From Candidatus Babeliales bacterium (GTDB lineage: Bacteria; Babelota; Babeliae; Babelales; JACPOV01): a stretch of DNA of 64,000 nucleotides. The notes beneath the pieces were generated by a model. The model was not told where the DNA came from, searched no databases, and saw only the letters and a list, made by a program, of their open reading frames with translations. The position numbers and the translations under genes were made by a program. Shown one piece after another: positions 1,164 to 64,000 of this stretch (positions within the stretch are counted from its first letter, which is position 1; every line of letters begins with the position of its first letter). The stretch spans positions 731,938-795,937 of the forward strand of contig DATALT010000002.1 in the NCBI GenBank assembly GCA_036260945.1, in the 5' to 3' direction.

Positions 1164-1188
1164 AAAAAATAGAGTTTCAGATCCTATT

Positions 1189-2373
1189 TTATGCACTTGT
1201 TGTTGCATCGTGAGAATAATAAACGATCGATGCAGAATCAAAAAGCTGATCTTTATATTTCTTAAATAGATCGACCGATTTCTCTTGGCGCAATTCTGCA
1301 ACAATATGCTTATAGCGTTTTTTGAGAGAAACTAAGCGCTGCGGTTTTTTTGCCGATACCTTAAAGAGTTCAAAGCCGCCATTCGTTTCTAGTGGTTCAG
1401 AAATCTTATTTACATCCAGCGATAATAGAAAGCGCATATGCTCCGCCATTTCGCTCTCTTTGAGCCAAAACTCATCTTCCCAAGATGTAATAAATGAAGT
1501 ATCGCCCGCGGCAATTTTATTTACCAACTCATCTTTAGAACTAACTTGAGAAAAAGAAACAAATGCTCTTGAAATTTTTACTCGAGGTTCATTATAAATT
1601 GGATGCTCTTTGTAATAGGCTTCTATCTCATTTTCAGGTACCACAACGCCTTGCATTTTCATTTCGCTCATATAATTGACCGCGTACATTTTTTTCAGCT
1701 CTTTAATACCTTCTTGCAGCGTATAGCCAGATTGCGCAAGAATTTTTTCTAAATCGCTCATGCTCCAATTATTTTGTCTGCAGAGGCCATCAATATAATT
1801 GTTGACGATTGAGTTATCGTTCGGGTCCATTTTTTGGCGCTCAATAAGCTGCATCCAATTTTGATAAACCAACTCATTAAACGCAAACATCTCTAGTTTT
1901 TCAGCATCAGTGCGAGCAGCCATTGGCGCTAAACCTGGCCGGTATTTGTCGGTCTCGCAAAAAATTTGGCATCTCTCTGGGCCGTTAACTGCGCAGGCAA
2001 CCCCATCCAGATAAACTCTGCCCGCTTTCATGGGTTTTGGGGGCGCAACGACGAGCATTTTCTTATCCGCTAGCGGATCGTCGGTCTTTTTTATCTCTTG
2101 AGAATGGGTCAGTTGTTTGCTGGCTTTAGAGCCTTTTTGTGCCTTAGATGAATCATCACTTTTTTTTGCAGCAAGCGTTGCCGCTGCAGGTTTTTTTTGC
2201 GCTGATTTGTTGGTTACGCTCGTTGCTTTTTTAGGCGCAGTTGCCGGTAAAGCGTTCTTAGTAACCGTTGCCTGCTTTTTAGGGGAGGTAGAAGGCTTGC
2301 AAAACCCTCCAGAGCTAAAACCGGCTAGCAAAACGATTAAGAGGAGAAAATTACGCATATTCATTCGAGTCAT
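1189..2373 (-). CDS. SurA/PpiD-like periplasmic chaperone (PPIase family) with Lys/Ala-rich N-terminal linker
   Basis: Signal peptide followed by a K/A/S-rich low-complexity linker and a SurA-N-like chaperone region; the start may be an internal Met near 2358. Confidence 0.5.
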   Translation of the reverse strand: MTRMNMRNFLLLIVLLAGFSSGGFCKPSTSPKKQATVTKNALPATAPKKATSVTNKSAQKKPAAATLAAKKSDDSSKAQKGSKASKQLTHSQEIKKTDDPLADKKMLVVAPPKPMKAGRVYLDGVACAVNGPERCQIFCETDKYRPGLAPMAARTDAEKLEMFAFNELVYQNWMQLIERQKMDPNDNSIVNNYIDGLCRQNNWSMSDLEKILAQSGYTLQEGIKELKKMYAVNYMSEMKMQGVVVPENEIEAYYKEHPIYNEPRVKISRAFVSFSQVSSKDELVNKIAAGDTSFITSWEDEFWLKESEMAEHMRFLLSLDVNKISEPLETNGGFELFKVSAKKPQRLVSLKKRYKHIVAELRQEKSVDLFKKYKDQLFDSASIVYYSHDATTSA

Positions 2374-2461
2374 CCTTTAAAGTAGTTTCCCAGCCTTGCC
2401 TTTTTTACCAGAGATCTCATTTTTTATTCGGGGTCCCCAAACAAACTCTTAAGTTTTTTGG

Positions 2462-2499
2462 GGTCAAAATAAGAAGGGGCACCGATATAATGCCCCTTC
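2462..2499 (-). terminator. putative intrinsic terminator downstream of the 2543-3676 minus-strand gene
   Basis: Inverted repeat GAAGGGGCA-9nt-TGCCCCTTC at 2473-2499, followed on the minus strand by TTATTTTG. Confidence 0.45.
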
Positions 2500-2542
2500 T
2501 GGTTATTAGCTTAAAATGTTTCACGCTAATGCGCAACTGGCC

Positions 2543-3676
2543 TTATGCACCCTTTATGGCTGATGGCGCTTGGGAAATGCTGTCCCCTTGCTCTTCATCG
2601 CCCTGATTCATGCTTTGCTTTTGGCCACCCTTTTCCATCATATTGTTCATTTCTTCTTCTTTAAGCTTCTTTTTTCGCTCAAAATAGTCTTTGTTTTCAA
2701 CGATCTTGAACTCATTGCGGAGGCTTTCGAGCTCTTTATTGAACAATTCGCCCATTTTTTGCTGCTGCAAGAACGCCTCTATGCGGGGCTTAATTTGATC
2801 GAACGGCACATATTGTGCATCTTTTTTAGCGGTTGCTTTAATAACCCACGTTTTGTCTTTACCTGAAGCCATTTCAATAGCAGGGAATTTCTTCATGCCA
2901 TTTATTTTTTCGCGAACCACTGGATCAACATCAAAACTCATTTCATTAATTTCTTGGAACGATTTAACGTTGCCTTTTGCTTCTCGTGCTGCTTGTTCAA
3001 AATCAGCTTTGCCTTCTTTCACTTTTGCCAAGAATGCTTGAGCATCTGATGGTTTATCAAATGTTGCAATTTGCGCTGCAACGCCGCCGCGATTCATCAT
3101 GAGCTCAGGAATGGTTTTCTTGTTTTCATCATAATACTTGCGCACTTCCGCTTCACTCACATTTACTGGGTGAGCTTCTTGGAAATATTTTACCGCCAAT
3201 TGACGCTTGCCGAAATCAACGATCATTTGAAGATCTTTTTTGTATGCGTCTTTTTGGTCTATGCCACTTTTTGCAAGCCAAGCTTGAAGCATTTCTTCAT
3301 TTGCCATGCTCTTGAAAAGTTCCATTTCAGCATCTGGCATCAGCGCAATAAGCTGCTTTAATTGCGGTTGCGCTTCAAGAACAGTGCTTACATAATTTTC
3401 AAAACGATCAACTGTAATGCGCGGTTTGCCATCGATAGAAAGTAAAACTTCTCCACTTCCCGCTGGCATTTGATCCACAGCGGCAGATGATTCGCTTCTT
3501 TCTTCATTCTTGCTGCCAAAAAAATCACATTGAGGCAAAACTACTAAAATTGATAAAACAAACACTCCTTGGAGTGATCTATAAAGATGCATCTTCACGA
3601 GATCCTTTCTTTGATACATATAATTATTTTTTTCTGGTGGTAGCGTACCATAGAACGAAAATCGTTGCAAAATCAT
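2543..3676 (-). CDS. SurA-like periplasmic chaperone / PPIase-family protein
   Basis: Internal signal peptide (a likely true start near 3592) and SurA N-domain-like helical region; second of two tandem chaperone genes. Confidence 0.45.
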   Translation of the reverse strand: MILQRFSFYGTLPPEKNNYMYQRKDLVKMHLYRSLQGVFVLSILVVLPQCDFFGSKNEERSESSAAVDQMPAGSGEVLLSIDGKPRITVDRFENYVSTVLEAQPQLKQLIALMPDAEMELFKSMANEEMLQAWLAKSGIDQKDAYKKDLQMIVDFGKRQLAVKYFQEAHPVNVSEAEVRKYYDENKKTIPELMMNRGGVAAQIATFDKPSDAQAFLAKVKEGKADFEQAAREAKGNVKSFQEINEMSFDVDPVVREKINGMKKFPAIEMASGKDKTWVIKATAKKDAQYVPFDQIKPRIEAFLQQQKMGELFNKELESLRNEFKIVENKDYFERKKKLKEEEMNNMMEKGGQKQSMNQGDEEQGDSISQAPSAIKGA

Positions 3677-8773: not shown

Positions 8774-9015
8774 AACAATACCCTTATTTTTCTATCGGAG
8801 GCTGTTGGAGGCTATTACCCTGAGAACACTCGTCCACAATTTGCATTACAAATACTGAAAAAATCAGATTTTTGGCTCAAAATGTATGAATTTTAGAGTA
8901 CGCCAAATTGCAAAAATGATCAATCGGAGCAAATTCTAATTGCTTGTGGCGATTCATTACTTTTTCTATATACTCAATTAAGTATGTTTTCCTCACATTA
9001 CCCCATAACTATATT

Positions 9016-12727: not shown

Positions 12728-13399
12728 ATGAATTATTTGTTACTTGTACTTTTTGCTATGAATGTGACTGCAATAAGCGCAAATCCAAGAATTTTTACTC
12801 TCGAGAAAAATGCAAAAAATATTCCCGTCTGCACCGAAGGGGATAAAATAATATTCGAAGAGGAAAAAAAATCCACTTATAGAGTTTCCACGATAGTACC
12901 CGAAACAGAAAAAAATTACGGAGTGATATATCTTCGCAATTGCAACTGGGAATCACAAAACCATAAAAAAATATTTTTCGCGAATGATGAACTTAAAGTT
13001 GTCCAGGCTGCTACCGGGCAAGATCTTTTCAATGCGCGACAACTTCAAATTAAAACTCGATATTATAATTTTCAAACATGTAAGTCAAAACCTATTGTCT
13101 ATCGGGGAGAGAAATGGTACCTGCTTGAAAAACCAGAATGGCATCCCTCCGGCTCCACGCTAAAATTGCGTCAACAAAATTTTTTTGCCGAAACAGGAAT
13201 CACACTTGCGACCATTCACACACTTAAATTTTCAGCAGAAAAAATCTGGAACAACTATACCACTGCCGAGTTTCCTGGCCCAGAAGAATATTACAGAAAA
13301 TATTATTGGGGGCGCATTGCTGCGGTTACAACTGCCAGCGTAGCTACAACTCTTGGCTGCGCTTATTTAGCTTATAAAAAATTCTGGGCAAAAAATTAA
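12728..13399 (+). CDS. hypothetical secreted protein with C-terminal hydrophobic anchor plus basic tail
   Basis: Signal peptide; C-terminus ...AAVTTASVATTLGCAYLAYKKFWAKN. Confidence 0.5.
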   Translation: MNYLLLVLFAMNVTAISANPRIFTLEKNAKNIPVCTEGDKIIFEEEKKSTYRVSTIVPETEKNYGVIYLRNCNWESQNHKKIFFANDELKVVQAATGQDLFNARQLQIKTRYYNFQTCKSKPIVYRGEKWYLLEKPEWHPSGSTLKLRQQNFFAETGITLATIHTLKFSAEKIWNNYTTAEFPGPEEYYRKYYWGRIAAVTTASVATTLGCAYLAYKKFWAKN

Positions 13400-20776: not shown

Positions 20777-22105
20777 ATGAAATTTTTATTCATCATTTTT
20801 TTTGCGATAATTTTTACTATAAATGCAGCACACGTTGAAAAAAAAATTAACGATCCGAAGACAATTTATGATGATCCAGCTGTTTTAACAGAAAAGAGCT
20901 CTGGCGAAAATCCACATCCGACCTATACCGAAGGAGGTATTCTGCAAGAGGCATCGAAGACTTCGCGTAATTCTAGTGGCGCTAGTGTCGCACAGGAGGC
21001 TACAAAAAAAGTTATTTCTCCAAGGCCATTATCGCCAAAATCTGTAGCTGACTCTATTTTCGTAAAAAAAGACAAGGTCGAGCGTAAAAGCACAGCAGTC
21101 CCGGCAACACCGCCTATTACACTTTCTGAAGAAGAGATGAAAAACGTTTCTAATGAAAAACGAATTTCTAAAAGAATCAATGAGTTGGAACTAAAAAACG
21201 CACTTCTGCGTAAAGATTGGGCGGGATGGAATGCATGGCTACATTCAGATGTTAAACAAAAAAAGCAAAAATGGATTGAGCTCGCAGCATGGAATCGAAT
21301 GGCTGTGGCAACCAAATATTTAGAAAAAATTGAAGATGATATTCAAAAATGGAAAGATCGAAAAAAACAATTAAAAAGCGTTTCAGCCCACGCTCTTTCG
21401 CCATCGGAAAAAGAAGAGAAGGAAAATTATGAAAAAGCAGCAATTATCTTGGCCCGGCCGATTGAAGACCGTACTCCGGCAGAAAAGGATATTCTGCTAA
21501 GTATTAAGAAAAAACATAAAGTTGAAGAGAGCGATTTTTATGACGAATTCTTCAAATTACAACATAAGGGACTTCGCGTTCCACCAGCACTTTTGAGAGA
21601 TTTTGTTAGTAACCCCTTGCTCGTTTTTCACGATAAAGCTATAAATAGCGATGGCCAAATTGAGCCAGACTTTACTCCACTTATCGATGATAATGAATTA
21701 GAAGAAAATGAAAAAATAGAAAAATATAAGTATTCAGCCCCAAAAAGATCAACCTACAAGATTCTAGGTGATTTTAAGAACGCAGTAAAAAAATGGGAAA
21801 ATGCATATTATGAAAAAGAAGACCAATTAATTTCAAGACAAAAAAATTATGAGAAATTTTCAGATGCAAGTAAGTATATGGAAATTGCGATTCATGATCT
21901 TAAAATAAAAGAAATAGAAGAAGCACATACAAAAACCATTAAAGATCTGGATAGAGTAATATCAACCTTGGCAGCCACTAACGAATCTCTAAAAAAAGGG
22001 GTTTCTCCAAGCAGCCGCAGAAATGGCTTTCTAGTCGGCGCAGCGAGTGCAACAACGGTTTGTACTTTGATTGGCACTTTTGTCTGGTGGAAATATAAAA
22101 AATAA
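20777..22105 (+). CDS. hypothetical secreted coiled-coil protein with C-terminal anchor
   Basis: Signal peptide; K/E-rich coiled-coil; C-terminus NGFLVGAASATTVCTLIGTFVWWKYKK. Confidence 0.5.
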   Translation: MKFLFIIFFAIIFTINAAHVEKKINDPKTIYDDPAVLTEKSSGENPHPTYTEGGILQEASKTSRNSSGASVAQEATKKVISPRPLSPKSVADSIFVKKDKVERKSTAVPATPPITLSEEEMKNVSNEKRISKRINELELKNALLRKDWAGWNAWLHSDVKQKKQKWIELAAWNRMAVATKYLEKIEDDIQKWKDRKKQLKSVSAHALSPSEKEEKENYEKAAIILARPIEDRTPAEKDILLSIKKKHKVEESDFYDEFFKLQHKGLRVPPALLRDFVSNPLLVFHDKAINSDGQIEPDFTPLIDDNELEENEKIEKYKYSAPKRSTYKILGDFKNAVKKWENAYYEKEDQLISRQKNYEKFSDASKYMEIAIHDLKIKEIEEAHTKTIKDLDRVISTLAATNESLKKGVSPSSRRNGFLVGAASATTVCTLIGTFVWWKYKK

Positions 22106-22143: not shown

Positions 22144-22746
22144 ATGAAATATCATGTACTTATCTTTACTTCATTGGTTATTCACAATTTTGCCTTTGGA
22201 ATGGAAACGAAAAACAAATCAATTCCAGCAATAAAAACAGGAATTCCTTGGGATAATTTAACTCCTGGAAATAAGCTGGATCTACTACTCGAAAAGTACC
22301 AACCGGCTATCGCCAGCTATCGCAAGACAGTGAACGAAAAAATTCAAAGTACTAATGGCAAGCGTGGCACTACTTCTTATAAAACAGAAGAAATTATCGA
22401 TGAAAATCATTCTGTTTTTGAAAAAAATGGAATTATACTTACTTTTGATAAAGTCCCGAAAGATACACACGATACAGGCCCAGCGTATCTCATTGAACCT
22501 ATGGAAAATTTGCTTTCTTTATTGGAACAATCAAACCTTAAAAATGAACAATTAATAATCGATTGCTCAGCTCATTATAACGCCGATCATGCGCTGAATA
22601 AAAAGATTGCTTTCACAGACCTACATGTTACTCACGAGAAAAGAAAATCTCAGGCCTATGGATTTGCTTTTGGCGCGCTAGCAATTGGAAGTATCTGGGC
22701 AGCAACAAAAGCATTTGTATGGTGGAAATCTCGAAAAGCAGCATAA
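22144..22746 (+). CDS. hypothetical secreted protein with C-terminal anchor (paralogous C-terminus to the 20777 gene)
   Basis: Signal peptide; C-terminus YGFAFGALAIGSIWAATKAFVWWKSRKAA. Confidence 0.5.
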   Translation: MKYHVLIFTSLVIHNFAFGMETKNKSIPAIKTGIPWDNLTPGNKLDLLLEKYQPAIASYRKTVNEKIQSTNGKRGTTSYKTEEIIDENHSVFEKNGIILTFDKVPKDTHDTGPAYLIEPMENLLSLLEQSNLKNEQLIIDCSAHYNADHALNKKIAFTDLHVTHEKRKSQAYGFAFGALAIGSIWAATKAFVWWKSRKAA

Positions 22747-49182: not shown

Positions 49183-50442
49183 CTATTTTTTTGCCAATAA
49201 CAGAATCATCGCACAAAAACTTAAGCACGCAGCATACGTAAAACCAATTGCTGGCGAAAATAAATTCCAAAGACCCCCAACAAGTGCACTTGAAATAAAA
49301 TCGCCAACGCCATCTATCGCTTGCAGAATACCGAAACCAGTTCCGCGCACATCTTCTGGAAGTAGGGTTGCTGCATGCGCCTTTTTAAGTGCTTTAACCG
49401 TTCCTGAGCTCAATCCCGCAATTCCAAAAAGAAGAAACCATAGTGATACCTGCGTCGGCTCAAAAATAAGGCACATGCTTGTTAGGCCGAATGCGCCGAA
49501 CCCAAAAATAGCCAATAACTTTTTTCGATTCACAAAATCGCTTAATGACCCAATACTGAACTCGCATAATGATCGAATAATGTTAAAAAAAACATAGAAT
49601 AGAATTACCCAACCACTTGCAATAATTGATGAACTTTTCATCACCATATACTGCTTTTGAACGCGATAAATTAAAAGCGTTTGGTTAAAATTACCAAGAC
49701 CAAAAAGAAGCACAACCCAAAGGAAATATTTAAAATCTGGCGGCAGTTGATCTATTTCTTTCAGCCACGGTTGAGGAGATTTACGCATTCGCTCGTTCTC
49801 TTTTATTTCGCGTGTAAAAACGAGGAGCGCAAATAATGAAAAAATACCTGGAATAATTGCAATAAAAAAAATCGTTCTGAATGAAACTTTGTTCACGATA
49901 AAATATGTCAGTAGTGGCCCTACAATCGCCCCAGCGCTATCGAGGGCCCTATTAAAACCAAACGCTCGCCCATAATATTTCGATGTGACGATTTTTGAAA
50001 GCCATGTATCTCGAATTGGCTCACGCATAGCCTTAAAGAGCCACGCAATCGTTTTATAAAATAGAACATTCCACACGGACGATGCTGTTCCGATCAAACC
50101 TACAAAAATAGGCATGATGCCGTAACCAGCAATCAGATAGGGTTTGTAATGAGCAACTGTATCTGCAAGGCGCCCAGATAACACTCTTGTAATCGATGCC
50201 AAGCCGTTTGACAACCCTTCTATAATTCCTAACGCGAACGCTCCATAACCGGGACCAACGAGTTGCTCAATAAACAACGGCAAAATGGGGGTCGTCATTT
50301 CGAAACAAAAATCACTAAAAAAGCTTGTTAATCCAAATCCAACAATAGTTCTATTCAACCAAGAGTGCTTAATCTTCAATCTTTTTCCTCTCCATCTCTT
50401 TTGGTAATCGAATGTGCATTTGATTAAGTATCCATGGCGCAA
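49183..50442 (-). CDS. MFS transporter
   Basis: 12 TM segments; start uncertain because the ORF-track start overlaps the gpmI 3' end by 74 nt. Confidence 0.7.
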   Translation of the reverse strand: MRHGYLIKCTFDYQKRWRGKRLKIKHSWLNRTIVGFGLTSFFSDFCFEMTTPILPLFIEQLVGPGYGAFALGIIEGLSNGLASITRVLSGRLADTVAHYKPYLIAGYGIMPIFVGLIGTASSVWNVLFYKTIAWLFKAMREPIRDTWLSKIVTSKYYGRAFGFNRALDSAGAIVGPLLTYFIVNKVSFRTIFFIAIIPGIFSLFALLVFTREIKENERMRKSPQPWLKEIDQLPPDFKYFLWVVLLFGLGNFNQTLLIYRVQKQYMVMKSSSIIASGWVILFYVFFNIIRSLCEFSIGSLSDFVNRKKLLAIFGFGAFGLTSMCLIFEPTQVSLWFLLFGIAGLSSGTVKALKKAHAATLLPEDVRGTGFGILQAIDGVGDFISSALVGGLWNLFSPAIGFTYAACLSFCAMILLLAKK

Positions 50443-54831: not shown

Positions 54832-55836
54832 TTAATATGCTCTACCGCTTGTTGTTGCTACGGGTTGCTTGATCGTCATTGCTGGATTATCTCTTTGTGC
54901 CGGCTGCGATACATTCATCATGCCACTCTGATCTATTTGGCTTGATATATCAGCAGGCATATTTTTTTGTAAACCTGATAAGTGCAATTGTACTTTTGAA
55001 ATTCGGTCATCAAGCTTATCTATTTGGCCTTTGAGTTTTTGCGCTTGCGCACTGTTTTTATCTGCAATTGCATCATATTGAGTATGTAAAGCATCCATAT
55101 GCTGACCATAATCATCACGAAGTTTTTTCAATTGTGTTTGAACGTCATCCCATTTTTTATCTTGTGCAAGCTGATCCAACGCCATTGGATCCATTCCTGG
55201 CTCTATTTCTTCATCAACTAAATCGTATCCCCAATATGGATAGTAATCGTTGTACACAACACTAACCGCTTGTTGAGGAATTGCGTAATCATACCAAAGT
55301 GCTAATGCGCCTAAACCGAGAAGTCCTGCGCCCCATCCCCATGCCCATGGAGAAAGGCCCCAACCCCAGCCCCAGCCGCCCCACCAGCCGTTGCCCCAAC
55401 CGTGGTTACGCCAGCCATGATTTCCATGATGCGCAAATGAACGATTTCCTCGTGCGCCACGACCAGCACCCCTGCCTCTACCCATTCCACGCGCGCCACG
55501 CCCTGCACCTCTACCTGCAGCTCCTCTGCCCATTCCGCGAGCCCCCCCGCGACCCATACCTCGAGCGCCAGTTCGCGATATTCCGCGTCCGCCACCGGTT
55601 CGCGCCATCCCGCGGCCTCCACCAGTGCGAGCCATACCTCGTCCGCCACCGCGCCCCATACCGCCACGGCTCATTGATCTACCACCGCCACCGCGACTCA
55701 TGCCTCTACCACCGCCGCCACGTCCACCGCCTCCGCGGCCACCACCACCGTGGCCACCACCACCGCGAGCATCAAGCATATCAACAGCCATTACGCTGAT
55801 GATTGCTACGAGCACTATCGCCAAAAATTTCTTCAT
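54832..55836 (-). CDS. secreted low-complexity protein with RGG/GGGR repeats and a Trp-Gly-rich segment
   Basis: Signal peptide; about 25 degenerate GGGR(G/M) repeats; HGWRNHGWGNGWWGGWGWGWG block; C-terminal coiled-coil. Confidence 0.6.
   Translation of the reverse strand: MKKFLAIVLVAIISVMAVDMLDARGGGGHGGGGRGGGGRGGGGRGMSRGGGGRSMSRGGMGRGGGRGMARTGGGRGMARTGGGRGISRTGARGMGRGGARGMGRGAAGRGAGRGARGMGRGRGAGRGARGNRSFAHHGNHGWRNHGWGNGWWGGWGWGWGLSPWAWGWGAGLLGLGALALWYDYAIPQQAVSVVYNDYYPYWGYDLVDEEIEPGMDPMALDQLAQDKKWDDVQTQLKKLRDDYGQHMDALHTQYDAIADKNSAQAQKLKGQIDKLDDRISKVQLHLSGLQKNMPADISSQIDQSGMMNVSQPAQRDNPAMTIKQPVATTSGRAY
55300..55770. repeat. GC-rich degenerate tandem repeat (CCACCGCC-like units) encoding the RGG repeats
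   Basis: Local GC island in an AT-rich genome; all alternative-frame ORFs across it are repeat artifacts. Confidence 0.7.
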
Positions 55837-56080
55837 CCTACTCTCCTTTTTTTGCGCACTTCGCGCATGTATACTTATGATTATTTTACTATTTGCAATT
55901 AAAACAACGCAATTAATTTTATCATTTGTGCTTATTAACCTTATTTTTCCGCATTTTTTAAGGTATGCGTGAAAAATTTATCTGTAAAAGAGAAACAGGA
56001 AAAACAAAAATTCTTCTATCGCTATAATGAATAAAAATGATGTAGTTTGAATAGCGAAAAACAAATGAAGGAGAAAAAAA

Positions 56081-56710
56081 ATGCGTACAATTAAAGCTTT
56101 TTTGGTAATTGCGCTCATTGCACAACCATTGCAAGCAAAACTTCTCAATTTTGAAAACCAAACTACAGCACAAAAAATTGCATTGGGTGCTGGAACTTTG
56201 GGCTATTTAGGATATCTGGGATATAAATATTATTCTTGCAAAAAAGAAGTCGCAGAAAATAAACACCTTATTAAACAACATGAAGGAAAAGGCACAGTTC
56301 CTGTACCAAAAAAAATTGAAGAAATGTTTGAAGCGAAGAACTTAGCATCATTAGCAAAAAATCCTAACCGCGAATACCGCTGGAAACCTCAAGTGGAACG
56401 AATCCAAACAGAAAAACGCAAGTTCGTTCCGGGTTGCCTCACTCATATAACAAGATCGCTATGTCATCCATTTGTTGTTGAAAATCTATACATTACAGTA
56501 AGTGAAAAAGATCCCGCGCAACTATTAATAAAGTCAAATTCACAGGGTGAAGACAGTGATGCAAGCGCCATAGAAGATTATGGACAAAACCGCGTTTCAT
56601 TGCACGATTCAAAATTCAAAGTCAACGGATGGAAAGCGGCGGTTTTAATTCAAGCATCTATTGGATTGGGATTATTATGCCAACAAGCGGTACGTTTAAT
56701 GGGTAAATAA
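56081..56710 (+). CDS. secreted/membrane protein, paralog 1 of a 5-gene tandem family (bilobed N-terminal hydrophobic domain plus C-terminal anchor)
   Basis: GAAGGAG Shine-Dalgarno; signal peptide then IALGAGTLGYLGYLGY; C-terminus AAVLIQASIGLGLLCQQAVRLMGK. Confidence 0.55.
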   Translation: MRTIKAFLVIALIAQPLQAKLLNFENQTTAQKIALGAGTLGYLGYLGYKYYSCKKEVAENKHLIKQHEGKGTVPVPKKIEEMFEAKNLASLAKNPNREYRWKPQVERIQTEKRKFVPGCLTHITRSLCHPFVVENLYITVSEKDPAQLLIKSNSQGEDSDASAIEDYGQNRVSLHDSKFKVNGWKAAVLIQASIGLGLLCQQAVRLMGK

Positions 56711-56822
56711 ATGAAAAGCTAACGCTTGTTTAACAGTTTCTAGTAAACGCATGTATTTATTTAAAAATTGTTACAGATTGCTATACTGAATCGGCTTTAA
56801 CAATTTTTAATGAGAGATTTTT

Positions 56823-57293
56823 ATGAAAAACTTTATGCGCATCTCGGCGCTCTTAATGGTTCTTACTTTGCCGATACACGAATCGATCGCAGAGCAACAA
56901 TATGGGTTTAGCGCTGATTCTTTCTCGAATGCAAAAAAAATTGCTGCCACCGCTGGCATCGTTTTTGGAATTGGATTTACTGCATATCAGCGCCATAGAG
57001 CAAAACAATTTATACAAAGTGAAAAAAATAATAAGAATGTCGATAGATCGCACACACTTAAAACTATCTACGCAACTCTCGGCAGCGTCACCAGCGCCAC
57101 GAAAGATCATTCATTCTTCCCCTGGCAAGTTCAAACGTCAAAATTTATTGTATGTAAAAATGGCTCGGAAGACGAAATTCACGTACTTACGCCACAATTT
57201 GGTCCGTTAGTGGGATCTCTGCCAAAAGCACTCTTTACGGTTGGCGCATTTGCACTAATCGGATCGCAAATGCTGCGCTCTCCTGGTAAATAA
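56823..57293 (+). CDS. paralog 2 of the tandem family
   Basis: Signal peptide then IAATAGIVFGIGF; C-terminal FTVGAFALIGSQMLRSPGK. Confidence 0.55.
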   Translation: MKNFMRISALLMVLTLPIHESIAEQQYGFSADSFSNAKKIAATAGIVFGIGFTAYQRHRAKQFIQSEKNNKNVDRSHTLKTIYATLGSVTSATKDHSFFPWQVQTSKFIVCKNGSEDEIHVLTPQFGPLVGSLPKALFTVGAFALIGSQMLRSPGK

Positions 57294-57359
57294 TTTTTCT
57301 AAGAGTTTTATTTAAGGGATCGCTCAATTGCGGTCCCTTCCTTTTAAGGAGACCTCAAA

Positions 57360-57914
57360 GTGAAAATTCGTACATTGCGTATAGTTTTAATAATGTCGCT
57401 TTACTGCATTCCAGCATCAGTTATTAGTGCACCGGTCATTAATGCGATCGACTCAAAGACAATAAGCCTTTTTTCAGTCGGGGCAGCGACCGGCTTGCTT
57501 ATCTCGCTTTTTCATCGCGATTGGGTGCTTGATAAAGTCGCACAAATTAATCAGATGCACGGCTCTGGTGATTTATGCGATTCGACGCTTTGGAGTCCAT
57601 TCTCGTTTAACGGGATCGATGATACGGTAATGGGCAAACCATTCGCGAAATCTTCAGAAGAAACTCGCGTGGAAGAGCAATTTCAATACAACTTAATCAG
57701 TGATAGAGTTCACTTTCCAACCCTCATGTCGACTCGCCATACAGTAACTAACGATTATTTAGTTAAAAAAGATAAGAGAGGTAAAAAATTTGCAATTAAA
57801 ACTCATACGAGTTTTCATACAGTTGAAGTTGGCAGCATTTATCCTTACATCTTTGGAACCGCACTCATAACCCTTGGCACTGGTTATGCATTCACGCTTT
57901 TAAATAAAAAATAA
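57360..57914 (+). CDS. paralog 3 of the tandem family
   Basis: GTG start; signal peptide then FSVGAATGLLISL; C-terminal FGTALITLGTGYAFTLLNKK. Confidence 0.5.
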   Translation: MKIRTLRIVLIMSLYCIPASVISAPVINAIDSKTISLFSVGAATGLLISLFHRDWVLDKVAQINQMHGSGDLCDSTLWSPFSFNGIDDTVMGKPFAKSSEETRVEEQFQYNLISDRVHFPTLMSTRHTVTNDYLVKKDKRGKKFAIKTHTSFHTVEVGSIYPYIFGTALITLGTGYAFTLLNKK

Positions 57915-57924
57915 ATCGACCACA

Positions 57925-58473
57925 ATGAATTATTCTTCTGGCATCTTAGTATTGCTCTTATTATTTTCTCAAAATGCTATTCAGTCATTTGATCAAAAAA
58001 ATTTGTATGCTGCAGCTGGAATCGGTGCACTCACTTTAGTAGGAGTGCAATGGTGTTATTTGCATCAAGTTTCAAAAAAAATAGTTCATGAAAAAAGAAT
58101 CCCTTTTATCTTGGAAAAAGAAGATTCATTAAAAGATTATTTACAACCATATTGCCCTATCTTTTCAAGCACGCTTAAAAATCAAATTGAGCCAGAGGAG
58201 TTAAATAAAAAAAAGAATGGCGAAACAATTGAATCAACAATTATCTTCAAAAAATATAAATTCCCTTTTTTGTTTTACATAGAAAATAATCTCACTTTGG
58301 AGTACACCATTCAAGGTGCGGAAAATCTATTTTCGGAGAATAAAATCGATCTGGGAAAGATTAAAAAGCATACCGCACAAGTAAAACCTGTTTTTTATAC
58401 GGTTCCATTATTGAGTTTTTTTGCCGGATGGATGGGCGCACGAATAACGCAATCGCATCCAAAAAAAATCTAG
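57925..58473 (+). CDS. paralog 4 of the tandem family
   Basis: Signal peptide then YAAAGIGALTLVGV; C-terminal LLSFFAGWMGARITQSHPKKI. Confidence 0.55.
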   Translation: MNYSSGILVLLLLFSQNAIQSFDQKNLYAAAGIGALTLVGVQWCYLHQVSKKIVHEKRIPFILEKEDSLKDYLQPYCPIFSSTLKNQIEPEELNKKKNGETIESTIIFKKYKFPFLFYIENNLTLEYTIQGAENLFSENKIDLGKIKKHTAQVKPVFYTVPLLSFFAGWMGARITQSHPKKI

Positions 58474-58659
58474 AATTATATTTATTCAACTCACCTGAAG
58501 AACCGGTGTTCACCAATCAATCTTTTTATCTTCGACAATATTGCTACCTATGTATAAAAAATTACCCCTTTGGTTTATTTTTTCAGATTGACATTTAAAT
58601 CAATTATGGCAAACTAGTTAATATAACACCAAAAATCAATAGTTATCGAGGAGAAATTT

Positions 58660-59325
58660 ATGTTTAAATCTAAAAAATTAGCGATAATGCTTATGCTGCT
58701 AACGTTGCACCTAGCAATAAGCTCGAAATCTAATGCGGCCAGCGATGTATCAACATTCGCTTTAGGAACTGGCGTGGGAGCAGCTCTAGTTGGCTTTAAC
58801 TGGCTTCAAACTAACGTTTATTCTTATTTGATTAACAAATACAACCAAGAAAATGCTCCCCTAGCACCACAAGATATACAAGAACAAATAAGACGTACTG
58901 CAAGCAATAATTATCAAGCTTTCGAGCAGGATGTAAAAAAAACGCCAATACACTTAAGCGCTATTACCCTAGATCAGATTAATACACAAAAAACAACAAT
59001 CGCAAATCAATTCTATATCGGTCACAATGAGCACTCACAACAGTTTAAAGCTCAGGAAATGAAAAATCCCGTCTCGTTAACGGTGCCTGAAGATAGAGTG
59101 ACCTCTTTCTTCCCTTATATTTTTAAAGCTGATTCACACTTAAATATATCTTACTCAGTAAATAATGATGATAAGTATATTTATTCAACTCCCACCGCCG
59201 TAACATCGCACACCGCTCAAGTTGGCGTAAGTTCTCACGCTTATTTGAAAACGTTTGGTGTTTGCTGCGTATCAGGATTAATGGCTCTTGGGACAAAAAA
59301 AGCAATTGAATATTTTACACGATAA
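58660..59325 (+). CDS. paralog 5 of the tandem family
   Basis: Signal peptide then FALGTGVGAALVGF; C-terminal GVCCVSGLMALGTKKAIEYFTR. Confidence 0.55.
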   Translation: MFKSKKLAIMLMLLTLHLAISSKSNAASDVSTFALGTGVGAALVGFNWLQTNVYSYLINKYNQENAPLAPQDIQEQIRRTASNNYQAFEQDVKKTPIHLSAITLDQINTQKTTIANQFYIGHNEHSQQFKAQEMKNPVSLTVPEDRVTSFFPYIFKADSHLNISYSVNNDDKYIYSTPTAVTSHTAQVGVSSHAYLKTFGVCCVSGLMALGTKKAIEYFTR

Positions 59326-59342
59326 ATTTATCATTACGGTAT

Positions 59343-59373
59343 GAGGCATCTAAGAAAAGATGCCTCTTTTTTT
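59343..59373. terminator. strong intrinsic terminator after the paralog array (shared with the convergent transaldolase gene)
   Basis: GAGGCATCT-6nt-AGATGCCTC followed by TTTTTTT. Confidence 0.7.
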
Positions 59374-60031
59374 ATGGAAACTTATCAATATTTAGCTTTT
59401 TCCAATCCGCATCAAATAGTTGAATGCCGCGATCTGTAAGTAAATGACTGCTCGCTTGTTCTAGCACTACAACAGGGAGTGTCGCTGCATCTGAGCCGGC
59501 CGCAATTGCTTCATGAAGATGCCGCACAGAACGAAGCGATGCTGCAAGCAAACCGGTTTGATAATCGTAGCAATCAAGCATATCGCCAATTTCAAAAAGA
59601 AGATCGCTTCCGCGTACATCGATATCATCCCATCTTCCGATAAACGGCGAAATATAGGCAACGCCAAGTTTGCACATAAAAAGAGCTTGCTCAAGGGTGA
59701 AAACAAGCGTTACATTCACACGCAATCTATCTTCCACTAATTTTTTGATGACCGCATAATAATCTTTGTGGCAAGGCACTTTTACAAGAATATTTTTATG
59801 CAATTTTGCGATTTGATGAGCTTGTTCATAAACTTTTTTTGGTTCTTTTTCGGTAATTTCTACCGAAATTTCCCCAGCAGGAAGCAATGCACAAATCTCA
59901 TTCACTGTTTGCCGCGGATTACCGCCAGCTTTTGATAAATGCGATGGATTAGTGGTAACGCCATCAATAAGGCCAGTTGTTGCCCATTGGCGAATTAATC
60001 CTATATCAGCCGTATCGAGAAATATCTTCAT
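59372..60031 (-). CDS. tal: transaldolase (short fructose-6-phosphate-aldolase-like type)
   Basis: MKIFLDTADIGLIRQWATTGLIDGVTTNPS N-terminus; catalytic Lys region ILVKVP. Confidence 0.85.
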   Translation of the reverse strand: MKIFLDTADIGLIRQWATTGLIDGVTTNPSHLSKAGGNPRQTVNEICALLPAGEISVEITEKEPKKVYEQAHQIAKLHKNILVKVPCHKDYYAVIKKLVEDRLRVNVTLVFTLEQALFMCKLGVAYISPFIGRWDDIDVRGSDLLFEIGDMLDCYDYQTGLLAASLRSVRHLHEAIAAGSDAATLPVVVLEQASSHLLTDRGIQLFDADWKKLNIDKFP

Positions 60032-60249
60032 ATATTTTTTTTCCTGTTTTATCCCCACAAATTCCAACTGATCTATCAACAGTATCGCCCCAGATTATTA
60101 TTGACGTCAAGAAAGCTAGATCTCTTTTTCCCCCACAATCATGACTGAAAGTCATGTGAGCAGATTAAAAATTCTTGCAGAGCTTCAAGTGCCTTGTTTA
60201 TGGTAACATTTATAGGTCATTTATTTGTCAAAAAAAGGAGACAACTTCC

Positions 60250-60459
60250 ATGGCACAATTCAAATTCAGTAAACTGGATACCACTACCCAAGGTATTATT
60301 TTATTTACCCTCGGCGTCGTACTTTTACTCTATACACTTAACATTTTCACCGCTTGGTTCAATGCAATTCTCATCATCAGCGCATTTGCGATGCTCGTAA
60401 TCGGCGCAATAAAATTAGAATTACCTGAGCGCTTGAAAAAATTATTCAAAAAACGCTAA
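60250..60459 (+). CDS. small two-TM membrane protein (69 aa)
   Basis: AAGGAG Shine-Dalgarno 7 nt before the ATG; two hydrophobic helices; basic C-terminus. Confidence 0.4.
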   Translation: MAQFKFSKLDTTTQGIILFTLGVVLLLYTLNIFTAWFNAILIISAFAMLVIGAIKLELPERLKKLFKKR

Positions 60460-60547
60460 CGGGGACAATTGCTCTAACGCACTTCGCTCCTAGATCTCTT
60501 CATTTTTCTATATCTATAGCTAGAGATAATCTAGACGCTCAACCAAT

Positions 60548-60584
60548 CTGCTGCTTGTACCTTTCACTTGAGTACAAGCAGCAG
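60548..60584. terminator. 13-bp perfect-stem hairpin between convergent genes
   Basis: CTGCTGCTTGTAC-11nt-GTACAAGCAGCAG; the flanks are only weakly U-rich. Confidence 0.45.
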
Positions 60585-60592
60585 AAGTTAAT

Positions 60593-63500
60593 TTAGTTCG
60601 TTTCTTGTTTAGTAATAATAACGCGTGTTGGCACGGCCATCTTAATATTGTGCTCTCTAAATAGTTTTGTCAGCCCCAATCGAACATCACTGGCAATATC
60701 CCATTTACGCATAATATTCACATCGCTCACAAATCCGCGTACTTTGAATCTAAAACCGTTTTCATCAAAATCGTTCAAGCGCACTACCGGGCGCGGGCTT
60801 TTGAGTACATCAGGATTATTTTCCAGAACATGCAAAATTAACGATTTAACTTTTACCGGATCGGTATCGAACGGTACCGTAAAATCGATATCATCAAACC
60901 CTATGAAATTGCGCGCATAGTTCCAATTATTAATTGGCCTACTTAAAATCATAGAATTAGGAACGATGATCGTATAACTATCGCGTCGACGCATAATAAT
61001 TGAACGAGGGGTAATTTTTCGTACCACACCTTCATAATCGGCATCGATCATAATATAATCGCCCACCTGAATCGGGCGCTGTACTAAAATAATGAAATAC
61101 GAAATAAAGTCACCAATTGGTTCTTTAACAATGTAACCAATCGAACCGATTACAACACCAATTGCTAGAAGTAGCGTGCCAAGGCCGCCCCATTGAAAAC
61201 CAAAATAAATCGCTATAACAATAATAAGATAGCGTAAAATACTTGTAACCGTATTTTGCACTCCCAAATCAACCGGCAATAGATCAAAAATTAATTTGAG
61301 CACAAATCGATTAATGAGAAGCGCGAGTACAAATCCACCAGCGATAAATGAAAGCACCACGAATAATTTAAGAGGCGTGAAATAAATGAGTTGCCCCGTT
61401 GTTTTATCCACACCGGTATCAAAAAGTTGAAAATTAAGTGCTTGAGAAACATCGTTCCATGAAAATGGAATCATCCAAATGCGCGTTGCAACAACAACTG
61501 CAAAACAAAGCGTCACAATAAAAAGCGCAATCACAGAAAGACCATACAACGTTTTTGCATAGGCAAACCGTTCATGAGTCGATTCATCATCCGCTGCAAA
61601 ATAGGCGGCAGATAAAAAGCGTCTAATGTAAAGATTTGCAATCATCACGAGCTTTGCAAGTACAACCGTTCCGATCGCGCCCCATAAAATATAGGAGATC
61701 AAATTGCCATAACCCCCAACATACGGATCACTAATAATCATGATCCCCACGATAGCCGCGAGCAATAAATAATAATACGTATTTATATATTTCGAGATCC
61801 AAGCACCAATAGTACCTTGGCGCGAAATAAACGTTACCACCTCTTTTCTGCCAATCGCAAAAATTACTAAAATACGCAAAAAGAGAGAGTAGGTGGCTAA
61901 AAGAATCGTAGGCAATTCAGATTTATGGATGGTTGCCGCAATAAATGCTTCACGAAATAAAAGTACAATAATTGAAACGTATGAAAAAATATAGGCAACC
62001 GATGCAAAGCGAGGCTCAAAAGACTTACCAAAAAGCGGATAGTTTTGCGTACGATTTAATCCGATAACAAAACGAACTGAGCGCGTGGCAACATACAAAA
62101 AGAATGGGATAGAAACTAAATAAAAAATAACCTTCAAGAAAAGATCGGTAATAAAATCCTGAGAGAAAGCGACAAAGAACACCGACCATATAAAAAGCGG
62201 CAGGAAATGCTTTTCTATGCAAAAAAGAATCATCCCAGAAATACGTGCTAAATAAAAAACAATTTTATGAATTGGCGTTGCGGCCAAAAGCCATCCGCGA
62301 ATGATTGCGATCAAACGACGCAAGTAATTATAGAGAAGTACGAGTAAAAATGCGCAACCAATCAGCATCAGCACTAAAAGTGGGCGCTGCAATAAATCGG
62401 TAAACGAAGCGACAAACGATTTCCACCCAACTTTACTCATCGCATTTTGCGCCAACTGCTGAACATCTTTGAAAAAAACATTCAGATCGGGAAAGAAATT
62501 AGTCAGCCCGCGCCAAGAAATCGCGTATTCAGATCGCTGCCAAATACTTTTTGCTTCCAACTCTCCGAGTACAAAGTTTAATTCTTTGTTTGTTTCATCA
62601 AGCGTTGCAATAAGATTTGATTCAACTTCAATCAATCTGCTCGTGTTTTCTATCTGCTCTGCAATTACTTTTTCAGAATCTGCAAGACGTTCAACAATGG
62701 CGGTATAGCGCGTTGGATAACGCTTGAAAACCAGATCTTGCTCGTTTTGTACTTCTTGAATAAATGCTTTGAGATTTGCAGCTTCTTTGTTTTGCAAATT
62801 CAATAAATTCGTCGTAGCATTTCGTTTATCGTTAAGTAACGCTAATTCACGCTGCGTTTCAGCACTTTGTTCCTTAAAGCGTTTAACAAACGCTCCAATT
62901 TCGTCACTCGATTTGAAACGACGCTGGGTTACTTGTTGCCACATGGAAAGAATAGCGGAGCTGATCTCTTGCCGCTTAAAATTTGCGTCTTCTAGATCGA
63001 TCTGCGCATGCAAATATTCTATTTTTCTATCAATAAGCTGGATTTGTGCGTTTTTGGAGCCTATCTCAGTAATCGCACTATACCCTTCTGGCGTTTTATT
63101 GGTAATACTCCACGAAGCAATATCCCGTTCGCTCACCGCATAGCGACGACTTAATAAATCAAGTTCTCTTTTTAACCGTTCACGCTCTGCAGTCAGCGAT
63201 TTAATTTCTTGATACAGTTTATCTTTTGCTTCGAGCGCTTCGGTTTTGCTTTTTTCAATTTTTTCCCGAGCCGCAATCACTTCCGTATCGGAGACACGAA
63301 ATGCACCTTTTATTTTATTAAGGTTCTCTTTTAATATTTTTAATTTTTCATTTTCAAGAAAAATTTTCGTATTAATGAGAGAAATTTTGCGCACCATTTC
63401 AATAACTTTAAGGTCTGCTACCTGCTTTTCATAGTTCGCAAAACGCTCAGTTAAATCAAGGAGCTCGCCACGCTGCGCAAAATTAAACTCTTTATAAAGA

Positions 63501-64000
63501 GTAACCGTCTTGCTGCCAAAATCTTCTTGGGCTCGCTTCTTTTCTTGGTACTCCTTTTGCGCAAGAGCCGCTTTCTTTTTGCGGTTATCAAGCTCTACGA
63601 GCGCATCGTTTTTCTGCGTGGCAAGCTGAGCAACCGCATCTTCTTGATACACCACTTTTTGGTTTGCACTGCGCAGTGCATCAAAATTATAAAATGCGCG
63701 CGGCTCAATAATTAAAGATTTAAAGGCTGGGTCTTTTTTATGATCTTCAAGCGCTTTGATATGCGCTTCAAGATCGGCGGTAATTTCTTTACGTACAAGC
63801 TGCATGTTAAAAAGAGCTTGATGGATTTCATTGAGCGATGAAATCTTTTTATTAAAGAAATCCGCATCTTTACCTTGAGCTGCACGCTGAGCGTTCTTTA
63901 CCTCTACCAAAGCGCGATCGGTCAGCTCTAACTGATTCGCTATCTTTTTTTGCTGCTCTTGATTTGCAGGCTTCCACTTTTTATCTTCTCCTTTTACATG
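60593..64000 (-). CDS. MscK/KefA-like large mechanosensitive channel (MscS family), N-terminus beyond the window
   Basis: Long coiled-coil periplasmic region, about 11 TM segments, C-terminal MscS domain; the reading frame stays open to the window end. Confidence 0.8.
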   Translation of the reverse strand, partial: HVKGEDKKWKPANQEQQKKIANQLELTDRALVEVKNAQRAAQGKDADFFNKKISSLNEIHQALFNMQLVRKEITADLEAHIKALEDHKKDPAFKSLIIEPRAFYNFDALRSANQKVVYQEDAVAQLATQKNDALVELDNRKKKAALAQKEYQEKKRAQEDFGSKTVTLYKEFNFAQRGELLDLTERFANYEKQVADLKVIEMVRKISLINTKIFLENEKLKILKENLNKIKGAFRVSDTEVIAAREKIEKSKTEALEAKDKLYQEIKSLTAERERLKRELDLLSRRYAVSERDIASWSITNKTPEGYSAITEIGSKNAQIQLIDRKIEYLHAQIDLEDANFKRQEISSAILSMWQQVTQRRFKSSDEIGAFVKRFKEQSAETQRELALLNDKRNATTNLLNLQNKEAANLKAFIQEVQNEQDLVFKRYPTRYTAIVERLADSEKVIAEQIENTSRLIEVESNLIATLDETNKELNFVLGELEAKSIWQRSEYAISWRGLTNFFPDLNVFFKDVQQLAQNAMSKVGWKSFVASFTDLLQRPLLVLMLIGCAFLLVLLYNYLRRLIAIIRGWLLAATPIHKIVFYLARISGMILFCIEKHFLPLFIWSVFFVAFSQDFITDLFLKVIFYLVSIPFFLYVATRSVRFVIGLNRTQNYPLFGKSFEPRFASVAYIFSYVSIIVLLFREAFIAATIHKSELPTILLATYSLFLRILVIFAIGRKEVVTFISRQGTIGAWISKYINTYYYLLLAAIVGIMIISDPYVGGYGNLISYILWGAIGTVVLAKLVMIANLYIRRFLSAAYFAADDESTHERFAYAKTLYGLSVIALFIVTLCFAVVVATRIWMIPFSWNDVSQALNFQLFDTGVDKTTGQLIYFTPLKLFVVLSFIAGGFVLALLINRFVLKLIFDLLPVDLGVQNTVTSILRYLIIVIAIYFGFQWGGLGTLLLAIGVVIGSIGYIVKEPIGDFISYFIILVQRPIQVGDYIMIDADYEGVVRKITPRSIIMRRRDSYTIIVPNSMILSRPINNWNYARNFIGFDDIDFTVPFDTDPVKVKSLILHVLENNPDVLKSPRPVVRLNDFDENGFRFKVRGFVSDVNIMRKWDIASDVRLGLTKLFREHNIKMAVPTRVIITKQETN

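Follow-up and report, generated by a model that had tools for sequence, protein, structure and literature searches.

Inclusion-membrane (Inc) proteins are defined by two transmembrane (TM) helices of 15–32 amino acids (aa) joined by a loop of 3–22 residues (30 being the threshold used in the search), the loop being rich in Pro, Gly, Asn, Ser and Thr, with Lys, Arg, Asp and Glu absent; they carry an N-terminal type III secretion signal and are limited to Chlamydiae (PMC3048545). The subject of this report is an array of five consecutive small genes, p1–p5, in a 64-kb stretch of contig DATALT010000002.1 of a Candidatus Babeliales bacterium (this whole stretch is called the window, and positions are given in its coordinates), which a preliminary description made from the sequence alone had compared with inc genes. 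The five proteins are identical to HEX2978365–HEX2978369 (locus tags VHO47_04570–04590), annotated in a Candidatus Babeliales metagenome-assembled genome, and therefore the source organism is a member of Dependentiae (TM6), a phylum of obligate intracellular protist parasites. As in chlamydial inc operons such as incD-G, small proteins with little sequence likeness but a common hydrophobic layout are encoded in tandem, the N-terminal region has two hydrophobic segments with fewer than 30 residues between them, and the mode of life is obligately intracellular. The locus is nevertheless different from these systems in several respects, and it encodes small membrane proteins of a real, previously undescribed family that is restricted to one clade, has conserved Gly-rich helices and ends in an exchangeable gene.

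The coordinates, strand and lengths (156–221 aa) of the five genes are exactly as first described, and all five Gly-rich segments quoted at that time are present in p1–p5. In the following, H1 and H2 denote the two N-terminal hydrophobic segments and H3 the C-terminal one, and L004/L007 denotes GCA_016191325.1 together with a Logan contig that has identical proteins at the array locus.

56081..56710, + strand: p1, 209 aa, recognized by its orthologue, its hydropathy and an N-terminal module like that of p2
56823..57293, + strand: p2, 156 aa, recognized by its open reading frame (ORF), its hydropathy and its L004 orthologue
57360..57914, + strand: p3, 184 aa, with a GTG start after a GGAG site
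57925..58473, + strand: p4, 182 aa, starting 10 nt past the p3 stop codon
58660..59325, + strand: p5, 221 aa, occupying the variable fifth slot

GGAG ribosome-binding sites are found ahead of p1, p3 and p5, and p4 is probably translationally coupled to p3. In p1, H1 (residues 3–22) and H2 (33–48, IALGAGTLGYLGYLGY) are followed by a middle region (49–183), H3 (184–204) and the tail RLMGK, with a candidate cleavage site after AQPLQA. The shortest protein, p2, has H1 at 3–23, a candidate cleavage site after HESIA, H2 at 39–55 (IAATAGIVFGIGF), H3 at 129–151 and the tail MLRSPGK, which is likewise the C-terminus of a more distant p2 orthologue (L002). H1 of p3 (3–30) has a candidate cleavage site between INA and IDSKT and is followed by H2 at 34–52 (FSVGAATGLLISL, with an invariant GxxxG), a β-module bearing FP and HTVEVG motifs, H3 at 163–181 and the tail NKK. 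The corresponding segments of p4 are H1 at 4–22, H2 at 27–45 (YAAAGIGALTLVGV), a β-module with YKFPFLF and HTAQVK, H3 at 156–174 and the tail SHPKKI, and those of p5 are H1 at 4–23 with a candidate cleavage site after SKSNA, H2 at 30–47 (FALGTGVGAALVGF), a β-module with SFFPYIF and HTAQVG, H3 at 194–213 and the tail KKAIEYFTR.

By Kyte–Doolittle hydropathy the common layout holds in all five proteins as had been proposed: H1 starting at residues 1–8, H2 8–20 residues further on at around residues 26–55, a variable middle, and H3 within the last 30 residues followed by Lys or Arg. Among all window ORFs of 90–350 aa, the combination of H1, an intervening H2 and a C-terminal segment is found only in these five adjacent genes, p1 being included although its H2 fell short of the threshold used in the scan, and the clustering of five genes of like build is therefore not due to chance. 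The hydrophobicity of the segments can be compared by a crude sum on the Hessa biological scale, the scale values being those of the established literature. This sum is 2.7–4.7 for H2 of p3–p5, 7.2–7.8 for H2 of p1 and p2 and 1.4–5.7 for H3, against −3 to +7.6 for the TM helices of the MFS, Lgt-like and MscS proteins encoded in this window, while cytosolic enzymes seldom fall below 8. By comparison with these same-window helices, H2 is a credible TM helix in p3–p5 and a borderline one in p1 and p2.

The three segments differ in their conservation. When distant orthologues are compared, H1 is 25–38% identical, the middle domain 44–47%, and H2 and H3 59–100%, with the Gly positions of H2 and H3 invariant; among p3 orthologues H1 is only 25–33% identical versus 81–100% for H2, and the junction xxA/[IV]DSKT is kept in all three of them although H1 is scrambled. 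H1 thus behaves like a cleavable Sec signal peptide that precedes a functionally important membrane helix, H2, because it starts at residues 1–8, has a basic n-region and small residues at −3 and −1, and shows the lowest identity among orthologues. On inspection, p1 (PLQA/K), p2 (ESIA/E), p3 (INA/I) and p5 (SNA/A) agree with the criteria for Sec signals, namely a basic n-region, a hydrophobic h-region of 10–15 residues and small residues at −3 and −1, while in p4 of the window the n-region is not basic and its orthologues are poor at −1. The loop between H1 and H2 reads KLLNFENQTTAQK in p1, EQQYGFSADSFSNAKK in p2, (A)IDSKTIS in p3, FDQKN in p4 and ASDVST in p5, and it contains Asp in all but p1; the Asp before H2 is invariant over nine sequences of the p3/p4/p5 group. 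Lys or Arg follows H2 in p1, p2 and p4. AlphaFold2 models are of low confidence, with a mean pLDDT of 39.7 for p5 (three sequences) and 52.8 for p4 (seven sequences). In the latter, helices are placed at 24–56 and 159–176 with three long strands between them, and the two independent, low-confidence models agree in placing three strands between a long H2 helix and a helix at the C-terminus.

The five genes had been regarded as paralogues of one another, which holds within p3/p4/p5 and within the N-terminal module of p1 and p2 but not between these two groups. Outside the hydrophobic segments, z scores against shuffled sequences are 4.0–4.6 for p4–p5, 3.6 for p3–p5 and 2.5 for p3–p4, and hhalign of the subfamily profiles gives E = 2.7e-4 to 3.5e-3 for the pairs of this group. 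p1 and p2 are related over the linker, H2 and the juxtamembrane stretch (z = 6.8, reached by 0 of 2000 shuffles). On the other hand, comparison of p1/p2 with p3/p4/p5 is not significant by Smith–Waterman alignment, by hhalign or by a hidden Markov model (HMM) of the C-terminal module built from p3/p4/p5, which detects neither p1 nor p2. An Asp before H2, a G-x-G-A core in H2, an [FL]-P motif, a Leu in H3 and an H-[TS]-x-x-[VL] motif directly before H3 are common to p3, p4 and p5, whose β-module can be written as FP...HTxQVG. Between the groups the likeness is at the level of motifs, namely F-x-P (FVP and FFP) and H/T-x-Q-[VF]-G before H3 (LHDSKF and TPQFG, and TAHFG in a p2 orthologue). As far as these alignments reach, the array appears to consist of two detectable paralogue groups with a common architecture, and a single origin of all five genes is plausible.

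The bilobed N-terminus that defines Inc proteins had been the reason for the comparison with them. The spacing of H1 and H2 (8–20 residues, below 30) formally agrees with this, but H1 is like a signal peptide, and H2 of p1 and p2 is marginally hydrophobic. The analogy proves superficial in other respects: Asp and Lys occur in the H1–H2 loop, a C-terminal H3 is added, and the phylum is Dependentiae rather than Chlamydiae. In Inc proteins the first helix is internal and follows the type III signal, whereas the first segment here is a putative Sec-type signal peptide (residues 1–22), the Asp and Lys of the loop are conserved, and no sequence relationship exists. The start of H1 at residues 1–8 leaves no hydrophilic N-terminal segment for a type III signal, and no type III genes are found within the 64-kb window, out of a genome of roughly 1.06 Mb. 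The TM6 genome surveys considered here describe only Sec, type II and type IV-pilus parts, with type III systems unmentioned (PMC4776705; PMC6561590). Membership of the Inc family is thus not supported. Since signal peptides occur in 44% of the coding sequences of C. destructans, also of Dependentiae, and ORFans are over-represented among these sequences (PMC6561590), ORFans bearing signal peptides are the norm in the phylum.

The view that the family is undescribed and narrowly distributed, with no strong match to a characterized housekeeping family, stands. Scans of Pfam, NCBIfam, PHROGs and PADLOC and a search of PDB sequences with a nine-sequence profile gave nothing above chance for p1–p5. 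An exhaustive search of 1.84 billion representatives with a p3/p4/p5 profile recovered p5 itself, a p3 orthologue (P0004), a p4 orthologue (P0005) and P0006, a 787-aa protein (E = 1.8e-4 over seven stretches) that was judged spurious, as its highly repetitive translation gives a low-complexity match to the FP-motif region. A profile of all five proteins added the p1 orthologue P0009 and further p4 orthologues, P0008 and P0010. Scans of genome contigs (with the MscS neighbour and with a p4 alignment) and of metagenome contigs (with p4 and p3 alignments) gave no relatives.

Orthologues of p1–p4 occur in three close lineages only, the relatives belonging to Candidatus Dependentiae genomes. In L004/L007 and in a JGI contig, the order p1–p4 is kept between a gene for a Gly/Arg-repeat protein and a transaldolase gene. 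The complete order in L004/L007 is GT4 glycosyltransferase, Gly/Arg-repeat gene, p1, p2, p3, p4 and transaldolase, with the stop codons of p4 and transaldolase 5 nt apart; the JGI contig, together with three ENA fragments, has four genes of 228, 176, 183 and 182 aa; and the L006 locus holds the C-terminus of p3, p4, a spacer and a fifth gene. Copy number thus varies from four to five genes among related genomes, a variation whose examination the preliminary description had proposed. The array is absent from more distant Babeliales, whose transaldolase is 69–74% identical: in L008 the space between the transaldolase and Gly/Arg-repeat genes is taken by three different genes for small membrane proteins, which face the opposite way, and L010 has one 139-aa gene between the transaldolase and GT4 genes. 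From its absence at these loci, the array therefore appears to be restricted to a genus-level clade.

In keeping with the preliminary description, p1–p4 evolve faster than their neighbours, with ratios of nonsynonymous to synonymous substitution rates (dN/dS) of 0.19–0.48 versus 0.02–0.15. Between the window and L004, the ratio is 0.21 for p1 (76% protein identity, as also found for P0009), 0.41 for p2 (88%), 0.20 for p3 (69%) and 0.34 for p4. Across orthologues it is 0.19–0.20 for p3, which is 55% identical to P0004, and 0.32–0.48 for p4, which is 87%, 63% and 51% identical to P0008, P0010 and P0005, respectively; against the more distant orthologues, p3 and p4 give 0.19–0.48 and transaldolase 0.07. 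The term "diversifying" applied earlier to this array is an overstatement, as these values correspond to relaxed purifying selection and no gene-wide positive selection is seen. Because of their conserved order and dN/dS of 0.19–0.48, p1–p4 are real, constrained genes, evolving several-fold faster than housekeeping genes. Their divergence is uneven along the array. Nucleotide identity to L004 is 81% for p1, 92% for p2, 73% for p3 and 92% for p4, with 82–89% for neighbouring genes, and the synonymous rate dS spans 0.15–1.07, being unusually low in p2 (0.15) and also low in p4 (0.21) versus 0.5–1.07 in neighbouring genes. This mosaic of identity and dS suggests recent recombination or exchange of single genes between strains.

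The fifth slot of the array is variable, and its gene is preceded by a spacer.

58474..58659, + strand: spacer before the fifth gene, holding the GGAG ribosome-binding site of p5, with a G+C content of 0.28

This spacer is about 85% identical to that of L006, yet the gene bodies that follow are unrelated. Nucleotide homology with L006 ends at 58678, 19 nt into p5, and resumes at 59370 in the 3' end of the transaldolase gene, so that only the first six codons or so are common to the two fifth genes, between which no similarity is detectable (Smith–Waterman z = 0.8). The layout of the L006 gene is nonetheless that of p5, with H1, a Gly-rich H2, an FP motif, H3 and a basic end. In L004, L007 and the JGI contig the spacer and the fifth gene are wholly absent. 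No orthologue of p5 is found among 5.8 billion clusters, where a word-seeded search returned only p5 itself, or among the 1.84 billion representatives. Because the spacer is conserved, the gene bodies are unrelated and the slot is empty in the L004/L007 and JGI lineages, the fifth slot represents cassette-like replacement or loss and not gradual divergence. The spacer probably carries a promoter of its own for the fifth gene. A 19-nt direct repeat (18 of 19 identical) is present at 58474–58492, right after the p4 stop codon, and at 59173–59191, in the β-module of p5; the event by which the fifth gene arose or was replaced may have left this repeat behind.

Besides Inc proteins, some other known systems resemble the array in part. 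Procoat protein of phage M13, which has a basic N-terminus, an acidic loop and two hydrophobic helices, enters the membrane in the form of a hairpin, after which leader peptidase cuts it. The array proteins are similar in the succession of a basic N-terminus, a hydrophobic helix, a short acidic loop, a second helix and basic residues, although procoat has 73 aa and ends soon after its second helix, whereas a domain of about 75–145 residues and H3 are added here; the likeness would be one of mechanism and not of homology. In ElaB, YqjD and YgaM (DUF883), a cytoplasmic domain is followed by a C-terminal, Gly-containing TM helix with a few terminal basic residues, as in the array proteins, but members of that family have neither a signal peptide at the N-terminus nor a further TM helix, and p1–p5 match neither DUF883 nor any other Pfam family. 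OsmB, SlyB/Pcp and the Rickettsia 17-kDa antigen have a signal peptide closely followed by a Gly-rich hydrophobic segment of small-xxx-small type. Unlike these glycine-zipper envelope proteins, the array proteins lack the lipobox Cys and have a β-module and a C-terminal anchor. None of the glycine-zipper families (Gly-zipper_Omp, YMGG, OmpA and Rick_17kDa_Anti of Pfam) matches p1–p5, and the best NCBIfam match of the p5 N-terminus, OsmB, is at chance level (E = 0.018, 15 bits versus a cut-off of 98). Phytoplasma SVM proteins and immunodominant membrane proteins, for which positive selection is documented, form arrays that have much in common with the present one: a conserved 5' end or signal, a variable mature part, narrow distribution, marks of recombination, and layouts of a signal peptide plus a C-terminal anchor. 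They are of unrelated families, and dN/dS here is below 0.5. As other candidates, an array of type IV pilins or type II pseudopilins was rejected for want of a class III signal and because of the C-terminal TM helix, lipoproteins because the lipobox is absent, and outer-membrane β-barrels because the proteins lack an aromatic residue at the C-terminus and are not long enough. A class III signal would consist of a short hydrophilic leader with Gly at −1, Phe or Met at +1 and Glu at +5, and would match N_methyl of Pfam.

The reading that we prefer, tentatively and with a probability of about 0.45, is that p1–p5 are small integral membrane proteins of the bacterium's own envelope, inserted by a procoat-like hairpin and forming a lineage-specific set at the level of a genus. 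Transcription would run from the region upstream of p1 onward, with the fifth gene having its own conserved upstream spacer. The N-terminus would enter the cytoplasmic membrane as a helical hairpin, with the basic n-region inside, H1 and H2 spanning the membrane and the short loop with its conserved Asp translocated; it is by the known pattern of M13 procoat that the Asp of the loop and the Lys/Arg after H2 point to insertion of a hairpin with an acidic translocated loop. Signal peptidase I would then probably cut off H1, leaving H2 with its N-terminus out and C-terminus in, held by the Lys/Arg-rich stretch that follows. The middle domain of 75–145 residues, ending in p3–p5 in a predicted three-stranded β-meander, would lie on the cytoplasmic face, with H3 as a tail anchor. 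Conservation is highest in the small-xxx-small (GxxxG-type) motifs of H2 and H3, through which the helices probably pack so that array members form homo- or hetero-oligomers. A role at the envelope or the host interface is plausible.

Several points weigh against this topology. Cleavage of H1 is putative, being judged by inspection, and the residues at −1 and −3 are poor in some p4 orthologues. The basic C-terminal tail would lie outside the cell, contrary to the positive-inside rule, and three other window proteins in which a signal peptide is combined with a basic-tailed TM helix at the C-terminus (12728–13399, 20777–22105 and 22144–22746) resemble ordinary type I anchors with the tail inside. 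H2 of p1 and p2 is only marginally hydrophobic, as mentioned above, and confidence in the predicted structures is low (pLDDT 40 and 53).

Some of these points favour a different topology, in which H1 is cleaved, the mature chain is exported and H3 is a stop-transfer anchor with the basic tail in the cytoplasm, so that p1–p5 would be type I surface or periplasmic proteins. The tail after H3 then obeys the positive-inside rule, the same combination of signal peptide, C-terminal TM helix and basic tail recurs in unrelated proteins of the window, and the weakly hydrophobic H2 of p1 and p2 might fail to stop translocation. This arrangement is doubtful, however, as H2 of p3–p5 matches in hydrophobicity the helices accepted as TM in this genome, and the Lys/Arg after H2 in p1, p2 and p4 would normally make it a stop-transfer sequence. 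H2 would in that case be an extracytoplasmic hydrophobic peptide serving in oligomerization or as a tether or fusion-peptide-like element in a second membrane, outer or host; its composition presumably resembles that of Gly-rich membrane-active peptides, and such a role is likewise to be regarded as doubtful.

Proteins of this kind might also leave the bacterium and, as Inc-like or other effectors, insert into the membrane of a host vacuole or organelle via H1/H2 or H2/H3, in which case the moderately hydrophobic C-terminal helix with its basic tail could be read by the host as a tail-anchor signal of eukaryotic type. The mode of life is obligately intracellular, presumably in a protist host (PMC4776705; PMC6561590), small dissimilar proteins with a common hydrophobic architecture are encoded here as in chlamydial inc operons (PMC3048545), and the fast evolution and the exchangeable fifth slot fit such a role. 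It is unlikely all the same: a Sec-type H1 would direct insertion into the bacterial inner membrane, the conserved Asp and Lys of the H1–H2 loop are unlike Inc loops (PMC3048545), the TM6 genome papers mention no type III system (PMC4776705; PMC6561590) and none is in the window, dN/dS is below 1, and a Pfam scan found no eukaryote-like domains. A Sec-dependent counterpart of Inc proteins, exported for example by type II secretion or in outer-membrane vesicles into host vacuole or organelle membranes, with the fifth cassette as a strain-specific host adaptation, is quite unlikely.

In p3, p4 and p5 the HTxQVG motif stands 3–10 residues before the C-terminal TM helix and basic tail, and a putative N-terminal signal peptide is present, so that motif, H3 and tail might form a cleaved tripartite signal, of the kind known from LPXTG, PEP-CTERM and GlyGly-CTERM substrates, for a C-terminal sorting enzyme of the sortase, exosortase or rhombosortase type. 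The motif is, however, confined to p3–p5 and their orthologues, is not clear in p1, and is absent from the other C-terminally anchored proteins of the window; NCBIfam models (E ≤ 1) give only chance-level matches to p1–p5, and hence no sorting-domain model, and no sorting enzyme is seen near the array. Sorting of this kind is thus very improbable. That the genes are spurious ORFs or decaying pseudogenes in an AT-rich spacer, as the lack of known domains and of a p5 orthologue might indicate, is hardly credible given the ribosome-binding sites, the motifs that p5 shares with p3 and p4, and the order and length of p1–p4 kept in three other lineages at dN/dS well below 1, by which this idea is effectively refuted for p1–p4.

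Arrays of lineage-specific membrane or secreted ORFans are a familiar kind of feature in obligate intracellular bacteria. Dependentiae (TM6) are widespread and almost uncultured protist parasites whose host-interface molecules are essentially unknown, and the present family can be recognized by synteny and motifs, with a terminal slot that is swapped or lost between close relatives. Should the proteins lie at the surface of the bacterium or in membranes of the host, the locus would conveniently mark host adaptation at the level of strains and give experiments a place to begin; should they be located in the inner membrane with a domain in the cytoplasm, it would be one more commonplace case of the lineage-specific membrane ORFans of which such genomes are full. 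Interest in the locus would rise sharply if localization to host membranes were true.

The array is flanked on one side by iPGM, a hypothetical gene, RsmE, a GT4 glycosyltransferase and the Gly/Arg-repeat secreted protein, and on the other by a transaldolase-family gene, a small ORF with two TM helices and a giant channel of the MscS family. The features that adjoin the array are as follows.

54832..55836, − strand: gene for the Gly/Arg-repeat secreted protein, divergent from the array, a syntenic neighbour whose functional membership is putative
55837..56080, no strand assigned: divergent intergenic region between the Gly/Arg-repeat gene and p1, holding the GGAG ribosome-binding site of p1
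59343..59366, no strand assigned: GC-rich hairpin with a 9-bp stem (GAGGCATCT-loop-AGATGCCTC, then TTTTTTT) and T-runs on both sides

In the Gly/Arg-repeat protein a signal peptide is followed by GGGR/GMGR repeats over about 130 residues; a Trp/Gly-rich stretch (GWRNHGWGNGWWGGWGWGWG) then runs into a hydrophobic segment, and a coiled coil comes last. No family matches this protein above curated cut-offs, the best NCBIfam match being TraP (E = 7e-5, 22.6 bits versus a cut-off of 135). Its gene adjoins the array at every related locus, with equivalents at 8782–9759 of L004 and 10743–11309 of L008; in L008, which is more distant and has no array, it adjoins other small membrane-protein genes. The intergenic region is 89% identical to that of the close relative L004, a conservation equal to or above that of the flanking coding DNA, and aaggagaaaaaaaATG sits upstream of p1. 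This region presumably holds the promoter of the array, although a promoter scan of it identified none confidently. At the other end, the hairpin falls within the segment missing from L004 and is likely a bidirectional terminator for the array and the convergent transaldolase gene. An Rfam search of 55700–60600 gave no match. The G+C content of the array genes (0.32–0.42) is unremarkable against that of the window (0.40), and horizontal acquisition as judged by composition was rejected.

Other ORFans of the window, at 12728–13399, 20777–22105 and 22144–22746, all on the + strand, likewise combine a signal peptide with a basic-tailed TM helix at the C-terminus. The adjacent pair 20777–22105/22144–22746 has the common C-terminal ending G.....FVWWK[YS][KR]K, and this points to a further small family whose members are anchored by their C-termini. 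In close relatives (L004 2462–4278 and the JGI 3300047160 contig), a polymorphic-toxin cassette, composed of a Hint_2/Ntox21 toxin gene and one or two CdiI_N immunity genes, lies between the MFS transporter and iPGM genes; at the corresponding site of the window (50369–50442) it is absent and these two genes abut. Beyond the transaldolase gene, the small ORF at 60250–60459 (+), encoding a conserved protein of 69 aa with two TM helices that is 91% identical in L004, is followed by the MscS-family gene at 60593–64000 (−), whose product, of about 1188 aa and with 97.8% identity to that of L004, has an extended coiled coil in its N-terminal part and continues past the window end; this pair is kept even in distant Babeliales (L008). 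Further beyond the MscS gene, relatives have runs of five or six small genes bearing signal peptides (131–190 aa), at 191–3320 (−) of L008 and comparably at 18476–20630 of L004 and in the JGI contig, the window equivalent lying outside the 64 kb. Several genes of these runs end in a motif like ...Y.NP.Y...(V/I)YYLP, which suggests another tandem secreted family.

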